Origin: a virus
Lineage: Duplodnaviria; Heunggongvirae; Uroviricota; Caudoviricetes
DNA: 43,481 nt
IMG/VR virus record: IMGVR_UViG_2711768000_000011
Direction: 5' to 3' (one strand)
The notes under the pieces were generated by a model that was not told where the DNA came from, searched no databases, and worked only from the letters and a program-made list of their open reading frames with translations. Positions within the stretch are counted from its first letter, which is position 1. The number at the start of each line of letters is the position of its first letter. Positions 17,329-37,921 of this stretch are shown here, one piece after another. The position numbers and the translations under genes are program-made.

Positions 17329-17860
17329 GGGCTGGTTTATTGTATGCCAAATGATTATTAAAAAGGTTGTGTTAATAACAAGATCCGAAATAATATGCCT
17401 GCATATTTTTATCTTGCTTATATTCTGCATATTGTGCATAGCAGGCTCATCCCTGCAATCAAAACTGTATGATGAGTATTTTTTGTTTTCCTTTTTTCCA
17501 GTCATCTGATGATGACCTGCTTCTTTTTAATCCGGATCGACATCAGTTTTTTAAGATAATTCCTGCGAGTTATATGCATAAATGCCACAAACTCCGCATT
17601 TTATGTGGTTGGGAGTTGCCGGGCGCGCAGTGAGTTTGCTAAGAAAACTCCTGCATGGTGAATCCCCCTGTGCGGTGGGGTGATACCATTAACCTTTTCT
17701 GTCGCCGACAGGTATCACGAACATTTTGTTCACCGGGAGGCACCCGGCACCATGCACTTCAATAGATTCTCTCCACATTATGGATATTCTTTCAGAATAT
17801 CCCACGCAGACTTTGTGTAAATGTTAACAAATGTGCGTTTTATTTGATCTGATTCGCTGT

Positions 17861-31945: not shown

Positions 31946-32326
31946 ATGGCAAAGGCATGGGATATAGAACCGTCAATATTTGCCGGGATGATTGAGGAAG
32001 ATGTAGGGCTGAAGATTCGCTACATCGCTATGCAGATTCTTACTGCTATTGATATTGCTGCTCCGGTTGATACCGGACGTTTCAGAAATAACAACCTGGT
32101 GTCGTTACAGCATCCCGATTTTGGTATATCTGATAACGTGGATCCGAACGGTACGATTGCTGTTCAGCGTGGGATCGGGGTTATTTCGAAAGCTGCAAAT
32201 TACGGGGTTATTTATATCCAGAATAACCTTCCTTATGCAGAGGCTCTTGAAAACGGTCATTCACAACAAGCGCCAACTGGCGTGTATGCCAACGCTTTTC
32301 ATGGTGTTTTACAGGCTTACAAATGA
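31946..32326 (+). CDS. Tail completion protein (HK97 gp10-like), 126 aa
   Basis: Position and size; recalled gp10-family features. Confidence 0.5.
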   Translation: MAKAWDIEPSIFAGMIEEDVGLKIRYIAMQILTAIDIAAPVDTGRFRNNNLVSLQHPDFGISDNVDPNGTIAVQRGIGVISKAANYGVIYIQNNLPYAEALENGHSQQAPTGVYANAFHGVLQAYK

Positions 32327-32715
32327 AGTTTACTGAAATCAGAAATACGGTTATTTCCAGAATGACGGCACAGACGATTATTGATGGAAAAGACGTATTG
32401 TATCCGAACGGGCCAACGTTCGATCCTTCCGGTAAGTTAATCTGGGCGCGGTTAAGTAATATTCCCGGGCAGGCTGGAGTTAATGAAATTGGCGCGGGGC
32501 CGGTTGTTTATCGCACGGGGATAATCATTATTCAGTTATTTGTCCCCGCAGGTTCTGGTTCAAAACTCATTACTGAGACAGCCGATAAATTGCGGGAACT
32601 GTTTGAGTTTCAGGATGACGATCGTCTCAGTTACCAGGCTGTTTCCTCAATAGCCGTTGGCGAAAAGAATGGCTGGTTCCAGCTTAATCTTCAAATTCCA
32701 TATCGCGCGCTCTAG
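32323..32715 (+). CDS. Tail terminator-like protein, 130 aa
   Basis: Last small gene before the major tail protein; overlapping start. Confidence 0.5.
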   Translation: MKFTEIRNTVISRMTAQTIIDGKDVLYPNGPTFDPSGKLIWARLSNIPGQAGVNEIGAGPVVYRTGIIIIQLFVPAGSGSKLITETADKLRELFEFQDDDRLSYQAVSSIAVGEKNGWFQLNLQIPYRAL

Positions 32716-32741: not shown

Positions 32742-33704
32742 GTGAGTTCAGGTGCAAAGGTTATCTCGGCATTTATCCGGGAGACGGTTGCAGGCACTAC
32801 GCCAGCAAGTGGTGACTGGAGTTTATTAAAACGCACAAGCTGGGGAGTAAAACCCACCCAGAATAAAGGCGAAAATAATGAGATTGGTGGCTCCCGGATG
32901 GCTCAGGGGGCGACGCCTGGCACTGTGGATGTCGGCGGTGATGTTGGTACCAAATTTCGCTGGGGTCAACATGATGATTTTCTTGCATCCTGTTTCGGCG
33001 CGGAATGGTCAGGCGATTCTCTGACAATGGGGAATGAGCGAATAACATTTTCTCTGGCGACCTATGCGTCCGATGTCGGAATTGCCTCTGTCGTCAGAGG
33101 AGCGCAGGTTGGCTCATGGAAAATGCAGATCCCTAACGACGGCGATATTACAGCGACCGTAACCTTTGCCGGACTGGACTGGGAATCAAAGGCCGATGAT
33201 ACGAATTTTATCAAAGGCGAACCTGTGGATAGTGCAGGAAAGCTACGTTATTCGTTTAAGGAGGTTTCAGCAGTAAGCCTGAATGGTGTTGCCGGAGGTA
33301 ACGGTTTTTGTATCGACAGTTTTGATATTCAGTTCGATAACAAACTCCAGACACAGCGTTGTATCGGGACTGGCTCGCCTTATGCAGGAGCAAATATTCC
33401 GACTACTTTTACACCGTCCGGTACGGTGACGCTTTCATGGTCTAAAGCCGCGTGGGAAATCTGGAGTAAAACACTGACTGGAGAAACAGTTCCGTTCAGC
33501 TTCACGCTTTCGAATGGAGAGGGGGCATACACTTTCAGTTTCCCGAAGGTTCAGGTGTCAGGTGAATGGCCTGATGGGGGTAATAGCGACATTATCCAGG
33601 TTCAATTGAGCATTACCGCAGCAGATGAAGCACCTACGATAACCAGAAAAAAAAATTCCCCGGCTGCCGTGATCGCAAAAGCCAGTGCTGAGGCGATTAG
33701 TTGA
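32742..33704 (+). CDS. Major tail (tube) protein, 320 aa
   Basis: Gly/Thr/Ser-rich protein directly upstream of the G/GT chaperone pair and tape measure gene. Confidence 0.65.
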   Translation: MSSGAKVISAFIRETVAGTTPASGDWSLLKRTSWGVKPTQNKGENNEIGGSRMAQGATPGTVDVGGDVGTKFRWGQHDDFLASCFGAEWSGDSLTMGNERITFSLATYASDVGIASVVRGAQVGSWKMQIPNDGDITATVTFAGLDWESKADDTNFIKGEPVDSAGKLRYSFKEVSAVSLNGVAGGNGFCIDSFDIQFDNKLQTQRCIGTGSPYAGANIPTTFTPSGTVTLSWSKAAWEIWSKTLTGETVPFSFTLSNGEGAYTFSFPKVQVSGEWPDGGNSDIIQVQLSITAADEAPTITRKKNSPAAVIAKASAEAIS

Positions 33705-33752: not shown

Positions 33753-34214
33753 ATGAGGTTATGGATGTTTATTCTTAATCAGAAAATTATCATTGGTGGA
33801 GAACGCTGGTTTACGCCAATGAAGGACTTAAAACCTGTAGACGGGTTAAAACTGTTGGTGGCAAGCAGCGATAACGATCAGTATCGCTCCCGTAATGCAT
33901 TAATCCGTCGCCACATTGAGAAAATGGATGCCAGTTTGCACGTCGGAACGAAGGAGTTTGATATTTCAAAGGTTTCCGAGGTGGATTCTGTTGATGATTT
34001 ACTCATTGATAATGCCGCTCGTTATCTGCTGAAAGACTGGAAAGGGGTTGGTGAACTGGTTAATGGTGTTGAGGTTGCACTGGAATATACGGCAGAACGA
34101 GGGATCGCGCTGCTTAAGCAGAATCCAGAGTTGTACTGGCAGATCCTTGCAGAAGCAGCCAGCATCGCCCAGGGTAAAGAGCAGCAGAAGCAGGATACGA
34201 TAAAAAAGCCATAG
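33753..34214 (+). CDS. Tail assembly chaperone G-like, 153 aa
   Basis: Acidic small protein upstream of the tape measure gene. Contains the slippery heptamer A_AAA_AAG 4 nt before its stop. Confidence 0.7.
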   Translation: MRLWMFILNQKIIIGGERWFTPMKDLKPVDGLKLLVASSDNDQYRSRNALIRRHIEKMDASLHVGTKEFDISKVSEVDSVDDLLIDNAARYLLKDWKGVGELVNGVEVALEYTAERGIALLKQNPELYWQILAEAASIAQGKEQQKQDTIKKP

Positions 34215-34522
34215 CTGCCCAGCGGTGGTTATCGGAGTTCGGGGGAGAAAGGGGGGAAAAGGCAAGATGGAAGCGAGAAAAACTCAGGTTGCCACCGATA
34301 CCGGAACCAGAAATAGACCCGGTGCTTAAGGAGTTGTTGTACGCCTATTCGGTAATATCCCGTGCCCGACGTTATGCTGGAATGGCTGGGGTGCCTTTGC
34401 CTTTATCTCTGACAGAGATAAATGAATATTTAGCCACTCATCCGGTATTGATTGAGCGCGATGAATTTGAAGCAGTGATCTTTGCACTGGATGACCAGTA
34501 TTTTCAGGAGCAGTGTGTGTAG
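33753..34522 (+). CDS. G-T fusion chaperone produced by programmed -1 frameshift, about 256 aa
   Basis: The -1 frame is open from 34178 to stop 34520-34522 and overlaps the G frame exactly at the heptamer A_AAA_AAG (34202-34208). The track lists the distal part as a TTG-initiated 77-aa ORF. Confidence 0.6.
34202..34208 (+). promoter_or_regulatory. Slippery heptamer A_AAA_AAG (programmed -1 ribosomal frameshift site)
   Basis: Heptamer in the X_XXY_YYZ register of the G frame, the same sequence as the dnaX frameshift site. Confidence 0.6.
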
Positions 34523-34642
34523 TTGTTAATTACGTACACTCTGTTACAGAGATGTGATGGTGTCTTTAATTAAATCGATGATGCTCCTGGAGAAAAGCAT
34601 TGCGTGGCCTCGTAATCGCTATATCTACTATTATGTCGCCTG

Positions 34643-34668
34643 AAACCCACTTCGCGGTGGGTTTTTTG
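34643..34668 (+). terminator. Terminator/attenuator hairpin (CCCAC-uucgcg-GUGGG + UUUUUUG) upstream of the tape measure gene
   Basis: 5-bp stem and T-run 20 nt before ATG 34688. Confidence 0.5.
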
Positions 34669-34687
34669 TTGTCAGGAGTTTTAATAA

Positions 34688-37600
34688 ATGGCAGAGCAAA
34701 CCTCGCGTCTCGCAATAATTATTGATAGCACTGGAGCGAAAAATAATGCTGACAATCTGACCTCCTCATTAGTCAAAATGACGCAGGCTGGGGAAACTGC
34801 TGCAAATAGCGCAGGGAAAGTGACTAAGGCAACAGAAGATGAGAAGAACGCGCTCGCAAAATTAAAAGCAGCTATTGATCCAGTTGGTGCCGCAATTGAT
34901 ACTGTCGGTCGACGCTATTCTGAATTAAAGAAATTTTTCGATAAAGGGCTTATTGATAAAGAAGAATATGAATTTCTTGTCCGTAAACTTAATGAAACCA
35001 CAGAGGAATTGAGCGGGGTTGCGCAAGCGCAGAGAGAAGCCGAGAAGGCCGGAAAACTTGCTGCCGCCCAGCAGGAAGCGCAGGCTCAGGCCTTTCAAAG
35101 AATGCTGGACAAGATCGACCCTCTGGCTGCGGCGCTAAGAAATCTTGAACAACAGCATGATGAACTTAATGCTGCGTTTGCATCCGGGAAAATAAATGGT
35201 TCTCAGTTTGAGAATTATAGCCGAAAAATACAGGAAACACGGCGAGAGCTTACCGGAGAGGCTCAGGCAGAGCGAGAAGCAGCAAAAGCGCATGATGAAC
35301 AGGTTGTTGCTTTGCAACGTCTGATTGCTCAACTTGATCCTGTCGGAACTGCTTTTAATCGTCTGGTAGAACAACAGAAACAGCTCAATGAAGCAAAAGC
35401 TAAGGGGATGCTTTCTCCTGAAATGTATGAGGAGCTTTCTGGAAAACTTCGTGCTATGCGGAGTGAGCTTGAGGTTACTCAATCACAATTAAGCAAAACC
35501 GGAATGTCGGCAAAACAAACGGCTTTTGCTATGCGCATGTTGCCTGTACAAATGACGGATATTGTTGTTGGGTTGTCCACTGGTCAGTCGCCATTTATGG
35601 TGTTAATGCAGCAGGGCGGCCAGCTAAAAGATATGTTCGGTGGGATTGGCCCGGCGATCAAAGGTGTAGGTTCTTATGTGCTGGGATTAATTAATCCTTT
35701 TACCCTGGCCGCAGCAGCCGTTGGGGTCTTAGGACTGGCTTACTATAAAGGCTCTCAGGAGCAGGACGAATTTAATAAATCTCTTATTCTTACCGGAAAT
35801 CAGTTGGGGACAACCAGCGGGCAATTGGGCGATATAGCTCAACGTGCCGGGAATGCGGCTGATTCGACAACTGGTGCTGCGGCGGCAGTATTAAATCAGC
35901 TTGTGCGTTCGGGAAAGGTAGCGAGCAGTTCGCTGGAGCAAGTGACGACAGCGATAGTAAAAACGAGCGAAGTAACAGGAATATCAACCGAACAACTGGT
36001 TAATGACTTCAATGAAATTGCAAAGGATCCTGTCAGTGCCATATCAAAACTTAATGATCAGTACCATTTTCTGACACTTGCGACTTATAACCAGATTAAG
36101 GCGCTACAGGATGAAGGGAACCAGCAGGAGGCCGCCCGCATTGCGACAGAAGAATACTCATCCTCAATGATCCAGCGCACCAACCAGATTAAAGAAAATC
36201 TTGGTTATCTTGAGACTGCATGGAAAGCTGTCGCAGACTCCGCAAAATGGGCATGGGATTCCATGCTGGATATTGGCCGTGAGGCCTCCCTTGATCAAAA
36301 AATCTCAGATGTTCTCCGTCAAATTGATGAAATAGAAAAAAATACCCGACCCGGAGTTTTCGGGTTAGGTGGCATTGGAGATGGCGGAGCTCAAAATAAA
36401 AGGCTGGCACGATTAAAGCAGCAATTGGGCGTACTTCAAGCAGAAAAAATTGCTCAGGACGTACTAAATTCATCAATAAACGATTACAACAAGCGACAAC
36501 AGGAAGGAATTGAACTCAGACAGAGAGCAGATGCCTTTTCAAAACAATATCAGACCCGGGAGCAGCAGAGAGCTAGTGAACTTGCAAAACTGGAAAAGCT
36601 AAAGAATCAGTATTCAAAGGAAGAATATAATAATCTTATCGCTCAAATAAATGAGCGTTATAAAGATCCAAAGCAACCAAAGGCGAAAGGTTATTCTGAT
36701 GATGCAGCCCAACGAATGATTGATCATCTGAATCAACAGAATGCGTTACTAAGTTCACAAGCTGAGTTGACCGTTAAATTAAGTTCCTCTGAACAGGAAC
36801 TGGTTAAGTGGCGTCAGCGGATTGCCGACCTAGAGTCACGACCATCATCGAAATTAACCCAGGATCAGAAATCGCTTCTCTTACACCGGGAAGAAATAAC
36901 CACGTTGATGGAGAAAAATGTTGCGATTGAAAAAAATAACAGGCTAATCAAGGAATCCGCCGAAATAACAGCATGGCGTGATTCATTGCAGGCTTCGATT
37001 GATAATCGTCAGCAGGGGTATGATATTCAGATTGCTGGTTATGGGGTTGGCGATAAAAATCAGCAACGCCAGCAGGAATTACTGCGGATTGAACATGGAT
37101 ATAACAATCAGCGTCTGCAACTTGAACGTGACTATGCAGATAAATCCCGTGGAATGTCAGATCATGTTTTTCAAGAGAAAATGCAGGCTCTGAATGATGC
37201 TCTGGAACGGGAAAAAGAAATTGTCAGACAGAAAAACGAGCAGCTCGATATTCAGGCAGGAGACTGGGTTAGTGGTGCCTCCCAGGGATTCAATAACTGG
37301 CTGGATGACACTAAGGATATCAGTGAGCAGATAAAATCAACCACGACTCAGATGTTTGATGGGATGACCGATGCGCTGGGTGATTTTGTCACGACAGGCA
37401 AGGCAAATTTTCGTTCTTTCGCTACTTCCGTGATTTCGGATCTTAGTCGAATAGCATTAAAGGCTTCAATTACTGGGATTTTCGACAGCATTAGTAACAG
37501 TTCTTCTGGGGGGATTTTAGGAACTATCGGGAGTGCTATTAGTAAATTTATTCCGAATGCAAAGGGCGGTGTTTATGAGTCTCCGTCATTGAGCACGTAT

Positions 37601-37921
37601 TCGAACGGTATTTATGATTCCCCGCAATTTTTTGCTTTTGCAAAAGGGGCTGGTGTTTTTGGTGAGGCTGGACCGGAAGCCATTATGCCATTAACACGAA
37701 CTTCCGATGGTTCTCTTGGTGTCAGAGCTATTAATAGTAAAAGTGGTAATGGAGGCGGAGATATTACCTATGCCCCTGTATACCAAATCACTATTCAAAA
37801 TGACGGCCAGAATGGAGAGATTGGCCCTCAGGCAATAAAAGCACTTATGGGGATGGTTGATCAGCGGGTGCAGGGCAATCTGTTAAATATGCGACGTGAT
37901 GGGGGAATGTTAAGTGGCTAA
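34688..37921 (+). CDS. Tail tape measure protein, 1077 aa
   Basis: Very long, coiled-coil-rich ORF with Gly-rich C-terminal segments, located between GT and the M-L-K-I-J block. AGGAG SD. Confidence 0.9.

Follow-up and report, generated by a model that had tools for sequence, protein, structure and literature searches.

How are the two overlapping reading frames that lie between the tail tube and tape measure genes of this phage genome decoded, as two separate proteins or as one short protein and a longer product made by a -1 frameshift? The window, i.e. the whole stretch of 43,481 nucleotides that was analysed (IMG/VR record IMGVR_UViG_2711768000_000011), is a Rac-type E. coli prophage. Many E. 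coli chromosomes match the 1-kb region of the locus at 100% identity, and 1,074 of 5,426 complete genomes contain it. The window and the Rac remnant of E. coli K-12, where the gene is called ydaY, are identical from 33863 on, and Rac in K-12 keeps only a truncated copy of the locus. An earlier note on this DNA had proposed a G-T tail chaperone fusion generated by programmed -1 frameshifting, and that proposal is supported by the order of the genes, by matches to protein families and by sequence comparison with relatives. We consider it highly probable that G, the tail assembly chaperone of this Rac-like prophage of the siphovirus type, is the product of the ORF at 33765-34214, and that the longer product GT is made by a -1 frameshift at A_AAA_AAG.

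To place the locus, we assigned the neighbouring genes with Pfam. The order is tail terminator (32323-32715), tail tube, G, (T), tape measure and then, 3' of the tape measure gene, genes like lambda M, L, K and I. The tail tube (major tail) protein gene (32742..33704) lies directly upstream of G, matches Phage_tube_2 (E 9e-32) and is annotated “phage tail tube protein” in RefSeq, while the next gene downstream (34688..37921) is the tape measure protein gene, with matches to TMP_2 (E 4e-81), Tape_meas_lam_C and TMP_4. These two genes and all the features between them that are described below are on the plus strand. The overlapping G and T ORFs between tube and tape measure genes thus occupy the canonical position of lambda G/T. 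Elsewhere in the window, two small RNAs scored above the Rfam gathering score, namely the RalA antitoxin sRNA of the Rac RalR/RalA system (1557-1735, 225 bits) and STnc100 (17623-17809, 87 bits).

The standard decoding product of the first ORF is G, a YdaY-family tail assembly chaperone of 149 aa (33765..34214). Its start is most likely ATG 33765, rather than 33753, because a Shine-Dalgarno-like GAGG (33755..33758) is read 6 nt upstream of this codon and because the N-terminus MFILNQ...GERWF.P is kept in homologues. The G stop is preceded by the 0-frame codons CAG GAT ACG ATA AAA AAG CCA and is itself a TAG (34212..34214). Within this series the slippery heptamer A_AAA_AAG (34202..34208), the putative site of tandem -1 slippage by tRNA-Lys, stands in the X_XXY_YYZ register, just as had been claimed. 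One sense codon (CCA) separates it from TAG, which begins at the fourth nucleotide after the heptamer, and the earlier description of the site as lying 4 nt before the stop is acceptable in this sense. In the -1 frame, TAA at 34175..34177 marks how far 5' a shift could occur. Translation bears out that this frame opens at 34178 and that 104 codons lead to the stop at 34520-34522; counted from 34178 it is open for 114 codons, 104 of which (34208-34519) lie past the heptamer.

The two frames overlap over 37 nt (34178-34214), and A_AAA_AAG is the sole canonical shift motif there. The heptamer by itself is statistically unremarkable, since AAAAAAG occurs 22 times on both strands of the window against 13.9 expected. 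What stands above chance is its register, where it lies within the gene order and the 37-nt overlap, and the fact that it is conserved.

The T segment (34208..34522), 104 codons followed by TAG in the -1 frame, is defined by translation, by coding constraint and by a match to PHROG 1189, a family without assigned function (E 1e-36). Joined to G, it gives a predicted GT coding sequence, join(33765..34208,34208..34522), of 252 aa, whose conceptual junction lies between ...QDTIKK and AIAAQRWLSEF.... The -1-frame tryptic peptides expected from this conceptual protein are AIAAQR, WLSEFGGER and LPPIPEPEIDPVLK. The family matches cross the junction. G matched PHROG 313, “tail assembly chaperone”, with E 5e-46 (158 bits; profile positions 15-149 of 258), T alone matched positions 173-246 of the same profile, and the conceptual fusion matched positions 20-246 of 258 with E 8e-51 (174 bits). 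It follows that the members of PHROG 313 are full-length G-T proteins. Besides, all G homologues carry a precomputed assignment to the new Pfam family PF27119 (Phage_YdaY). T matched PF23812 (Phage_TAC_18) with 20.7 bits (E 5e-4), which is below the gathering threshold of 27 bits, and 8 of 18 T homologues matched this family at E<=0.01, the best at 9e-6; this suggests a distant relationship of T to Phage_TAC_18, not membership. The NCBIfam search with G, T and the fusion gave no match, and the PDB sequence search, for which the profiles of G and T were modelled separately, gave no match at E<=1.

To figure out whether the arrangement is kept, we drew on genomes, viral contigs and phage records for related loci. 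It turned out that the two-frame layout is present in Escherichia, Citrobacter, Klebsiella, Raoultella, Serratia, Pantoea, Siccibacter, an Erwinia phage and an Acinetobacter phage. The -1 ORF measured from the shift site is 102-121 codons long in every intact relative, and the 0-frame stop lies 0, 3, 21, 75 or 105 nt past the heptamer. Conservation of the T protein across genera begins directly after the site, with the pattern KKA[IL][AE]AQ.WL.EFGGE.GEK....

Selection on the T segment was estimated by the Nei-Gojobori method for the window versus 13 relatives. Over the whole segment dN/dS was 0.07-0.17 in the -1 frame, versus mostly at least 1 in the other frames. The 81 nt from the heptamer to TTG 34289, the first start codon of the -1 frame, were also taken by themselves. 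For close pairs, -1-frame dN/dS was 0.07-0.12 in these 81 nt; for distant pairs dS was saturated and dN was 0.16-0.40; frames 0 and +1 gave values mostly above 1 (range about 0.65-2.9). Purifying selection on the -1 frame therefore sets in with the heptamer itself, before any start codon occurs. Since the constrained 81 nt contain no start codon, translation there would come only from ribosomes arriving from G.

This bears directly on a reading with two independent genes, in which TAG 34212 terminates G and ribosomes begin T on its own at an internal codon such as TTG 34289, with no recoding at all. Current annotation speaks for it: RefSeq and GenBank place a “hypothetical protein” at 34289..34522 or 34337..34522, and many database entries are T-only fragments. 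The starts of these fragments, however, vary from entry to entry (60-138 aa), and a separate T gene leaves several observations unexplained, namely purifying selection and residues conserved across genera in 81 nt without a start codon, the conservation or compensated replacement of the heptamer, and the single PHROG profile match across the G-T junction. We therefore regard a separate T gene as very unlikely. As the earlier note had said, the ORF list of the window holds only a TTG-initiated fragment of T (34289..34522, 77 aa; “hypothetical protein” in PGAP), and we judge this fragment to be an annotation artefact, with GT by frameshifting as the preferred reading of the locus.

The heptamer itself was compared in 15 diverged relatives. 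A_AAA_AAG (as NNA AAA AAG) was found in 11 of them, G_GGA_AAG (as GTG GGA AAG) in 2, from Raoultella and Pantoea, and C_GCA_AAG followed by TAA in the other 2. The AAG codon is invariant in all 15. In the preceding 45 codons, by comparison, none of the 11 degenerate codons with an invariant amino acid keeps one codon, and third positions are invariant in 1 of 45. Judged from this alignment, the shift site is under nucleotide-level constraint. The change from A_AAA_AAG to G_GGA_AAG takes three coordinated substitutions and a K to G change, and slipperiness is preserved. The Acinetobacter phage TCUAN1 (about 31% identity) also has G_GGA_AAG in register, with a T ORF of 120 codons. Reported shifting in E. 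coli is 0.29% for AAAAAAG with no stimulator, 4.3% with the IS911 stimulator and 39% with the IS3 stimulator, and the values for GGGAAAG are 0.28%, 3.8% and 43%, respectively (PMC4066793 Table S3). Because the measured efficiencies are nearly identical, the two heptamers can be seen as interchangeable.

The same comparison speaks to transcriptional slippage, by which RNA polymerase would add or lose an A in the A6 run while the ribosome does not slip. There are indeed six consecutive A at 34202-34207, and poly-A runs can cause polymerase slippage (PMC3711429). Slippage-prone bacterial A runs are nevertheless longer (n>7) in the summary that PMC3711429 gives of them; the relatives with G_GGA_AAG or C_GCA_AAG have the same two-frame architecture with at most 3 A in a row; and conservation falls on the X_XXY_YYZ register and the terminal AAG, both of them marks of tRNA re-pairing, and not on the length of the run. 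Slippage of the polymerase is thus even less probable than a separate T gene, and classical tandem -1 slippage by the ribosome is the best-supported reading of these sites.

Two kinds of relatives depart from the heptamer. In L095 (2324-2334) and in L103, Erwinia phage Gungnir39 (about 1985-1995), the site reads GTC GCA AAG TAA, with no full heptamer; only the A-site A_AAG can re-pair, and the stop codon follows directly. This suggests that single-tRNA slippage beside a stop may be an alternative route to the same T frame. In the Pseudomonas phages Aurca01 and phiPSA1 (L101 and L104), which are about 32% identical, T likewise lies in the -1 frame relative to G. The 3' end of G contains GGGAAAG in these phages, but phased GGG_AAA_G in the G frame, not G_GGA_AAG, and no canonical in-register heptamer was seen in their G/T overlap. 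As far as these phages indicate, the shift-site rule is not universal across the wider family.

Many copies of the Rac-like prophage are decaying. Three relatives (L035, L037 and L052) have broken T frames, one of them through a change in the length of a G run at window position about 34250-34256. In E. coli strain G3 (L002, 1542-2505) the tail tube is annotated as a frameshifted pseudogene, and this prophage copy is otherwise identical. In E. coli NB16F79 (P0001), 12 codons are deleted between two GCAGAAGCAG repeats (window-equivalent about 34150-34193), by which G is joined to the -1 frame upstream of the heptamer, giving an obligate G-T fusion of 240 aa and no free G. Several other E. coli database proteins (P0040, P0019, P0014 and P0123) are chimeric ORFs of various kinds. 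Some combine unrelated N-termini, such as a ParB-like domain or a terminase-small-like region, with the C-terminal part of YdaY, and others place the G N-terminus directly on the T C-terminus. The chimeras reflect different deletions in Rac-like remnants, including the ynaK-ydaY junction of K-12 at window position 33863.

Such damage raises the thought that the window itself holds a decayed gene: in a defective prophage, a frameshift mutation would have split a chaperone ORF that was once continuous, and the heptamer would be a chance feature. Defects are common in Rac-type prophages, the K-12 copy is truncated, the T frames of the three broken relatives are obviously damaged, and a single-ORF fusion does exist in P0001. 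But the two-frame layout is kept across at least eight genera and both frames are under purifying selection, and the P0001 form is a secondary deletion of 12 codons between repeats, not the ancestral form. Decay is, by our estimate, the least probable of the three alternatives, and a functional pair of G and frameshifted GT is the reading that we keep.

The T-to-tape-measure spacer was also compared. In the window it is 165 nt long (34523..34687), with a terminator-like hairpin at 34642-34665 followed by a T run, which lies outside the frameshift signal, and it contains a possible ORF of 28 aa (about 34557-34643). The same slot holds cargo inserts in some relatives, such as an Ail/Lom-like outer membrane protein (L071 and L060) or a lipoprotein (Klebsiella L099), and is only 15-43 nt long in others. 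It looks like a moron insertion site, of which the window may have kept only a remnant or the terminator.

How would the shift proceed? We infer from sequence the occurrence of the shift, its efficiency and the roles of the G and T parts. Most ribosomes would stop at TAG 34212 and release G of 149 aa. A small fraction would pause on the heptamer with tRNA-Lys on AAA in the P site and on AAG in the A site; both tRNAs would re-pair one base back, on AAA_AAA, and decoding would resume in the -1 frame at GCC 34208, running for 104 codons to TAG 34520 and producing GT of 252 aa. Such tandem slippage works because tRNA-Lys pairs less well with AAG than with AAA (PMC5009743). If the proteins act as in lambda, the G part, present in G and GT alike, may coat the tape measure protein, the T part, which only the rare GT has, may recruit the tube protein, and the frequency of the shift would set a fixed, low GT:G ratio.

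We searched for stimulators around the site. The earlier note had proposed structure prediction downstream for a stimulatory hairpin, and this gave a negative answer: folds, a consensus fold and Rfam revealed no conserved stimulatory hairpin or pseudoknot. Single-sequence folds of 34209 to 34270, 34300 and 34340 and of 34180-34300 had z-scores from -0.34 to +0.89, no better than shuffles. RNAalifold on 13 relatives gave a consensus of -2.3 kcal/mol with 6 pairs and no conserved structure, and Rfam over 34150-34720 at E<=1 returned nothing relevant. A hairpin beginning at 34209 (-11.3 kcal/mol) was rejected as a stimulator, for it leaves no spacer after the heptamer and is not conserved. Upstream, AGGA (34192-34195) lies 6 nt before the heptamer and is present in only about 10 of the 15 relatives. 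As a Shine-Dalgarno-like stimulator it is unproven and was set aside, being only partly conserved and confounded with Q/K-E/D codons. The site is thus different from the stimulated cassette of the dnaX type, with its upstream Shine-Dalgarno-like element and downstream stem-loop. The heptamer is followed here by CC, which is reported as the most shift-prone 3' context for A_AAA_AAG (PMC5009743).

Since no stimulator was found, the shift frequency is expected to be low, probably between a few tenths of a percent and a few percent, which would be in range for a lambda-like excess of G over GT. The level of the bare heptamer in a reporter, about 0.3% (PMC4066793), is lower than the G:GT ratio of 30:1 in lambda (PMC5009743). 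A wider generalization, which we put forward with considerable doubt, is that the YdaY-type chaperones form a series of minimal stimulator-free sites, comprising A_AAA_AAG, G_GGA_AAG, the single-tRNA site C_GCA_AAG plus stop and possibly the out-of-phase GGG_AAA_G of Pseudomonas. If this were true, nothing but the heptamer, the nucleotides just 3' of it (CC here) and the spacing to the stop would tune the GT:G ratio, and E. coli K-12 would still make a frameshifted product from the Rac remnant ydaY.

For annotation, the consequence is practical. All six RefSeq/GenBank records that we inspected for the locus and close relatives list “YdaY” plus a short “hypothetical protein”, with no ribosomal slippage. 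The PGAP “protein YdaY” begins at TTG 33855 (119 aa; also L002 2656-3015), apparently fitted to the N-terminally truncated K-12 Rac remnant. In all homologues the N-terminus (MxI...GERWF.P) starts at the equivalent of ATG 33765, and about 30 residues are therefore absent from the RefSeq YdaY models. Re-annotation as join(33765..34208,34208..34522) would give a function to two “hypothetical” genes in Rac-like prophages and in related Klebsiella, Citrobacter and Erwinia phages. The main value of the analysis is this correction at a very common E. coli prophage locus. The mechanism is textbook, and the locus is a further well-supported case of G/GT frameshifting, with no biology beyond that.

Among known systems, E. 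coli dnaX (gamma/tau) uses the identical A_AAA_AAG, decoded by the single E. coli tRNA-Lys (PMC5009743). In dnaX, a strong upstream Shine-Dalgarno-like element and a downstream hairpin accompany about 50% shifting (PMC3711429), whereas no conserved element of either kind was found here; besides, the shifted product of dnaX is the shorter one, while GT is the longer one.

A closer parallel is ECs1801 of prophage Sp9 in E. coli O157 Sakai, for which A_AAA_AAG is “safely inferred” in cluster A_AAA_AAG_25 (Sharma et al. 2014, PMC4066793). There the same heptamer lies at the end of a tail chaperone gene of an E. coli prophage and leads to a longer -1 product. The earlier note was correct that the present heptamer is unlike G_GGA_AAG of lambda, but with ECs1801 already listed this is not novel. 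TAG follows the heptamer immediately in ECs1801, whereas CCA stands between them here, and its product has 124 aa against 149 aa and belongs to a different, HK97-like tail module. We rejected ECs1801 as the present gene, for BLASTP gave no alignment; because the protein sequences are unrelated, its cluster is not this gene. A literature search combining ydaY with frameshifting found no paper linking the two.

The reference case is lambda. Its G/GT frameshift and the wide conservation of that frameshift in long-tailed phages are covered by PMC5009743 in the form of a summary of earlier work (Levin, Hendrix & Casjens 1993; Xu, Hendrix & Duda 2004, 2013, 2014). At the level of sequence the two systems are far apart. 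There is no detectable similarity to lambda gpG and gpT (hhalign probability 0.1% for G and 0.2% for T), and the relationship would be one of analogy or very remote homology only. The lambda T CDS has 144 aa (NC_001416 10115..10549), compared with 104 aa for T here. Lambda T also overlaps H, whereas here T and the tape measure gene are 165 nt apart, with the terminator-like hairpin in the spacer. To our knowledge, no RNA stimulator has been established for lambda, and likewise no conserved one was found at this locus.

In arrangement and in the site itself the two are alike. The lambda pair likewise has the tube gene (V) on one side and the tape measure gene (H) on the other, and its two products, a short one read in the 0 frame and a longer one that runs on in the -1 frame, also share their N-terminal part. 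The lambda site is also a few codons before the 0-frame stop, 15 nt in lambda and 3 nt here, and both use a tandem-slippage heptamer ending in A_AAG, G_GGA_AAG in lambda and A_AAA_AAG in the window. Some relatives of the present gene use lambda's own G_GGA_AAG, which makes this family a neat case of one slippery heptamer exchanged for another of equal measured efficiency.
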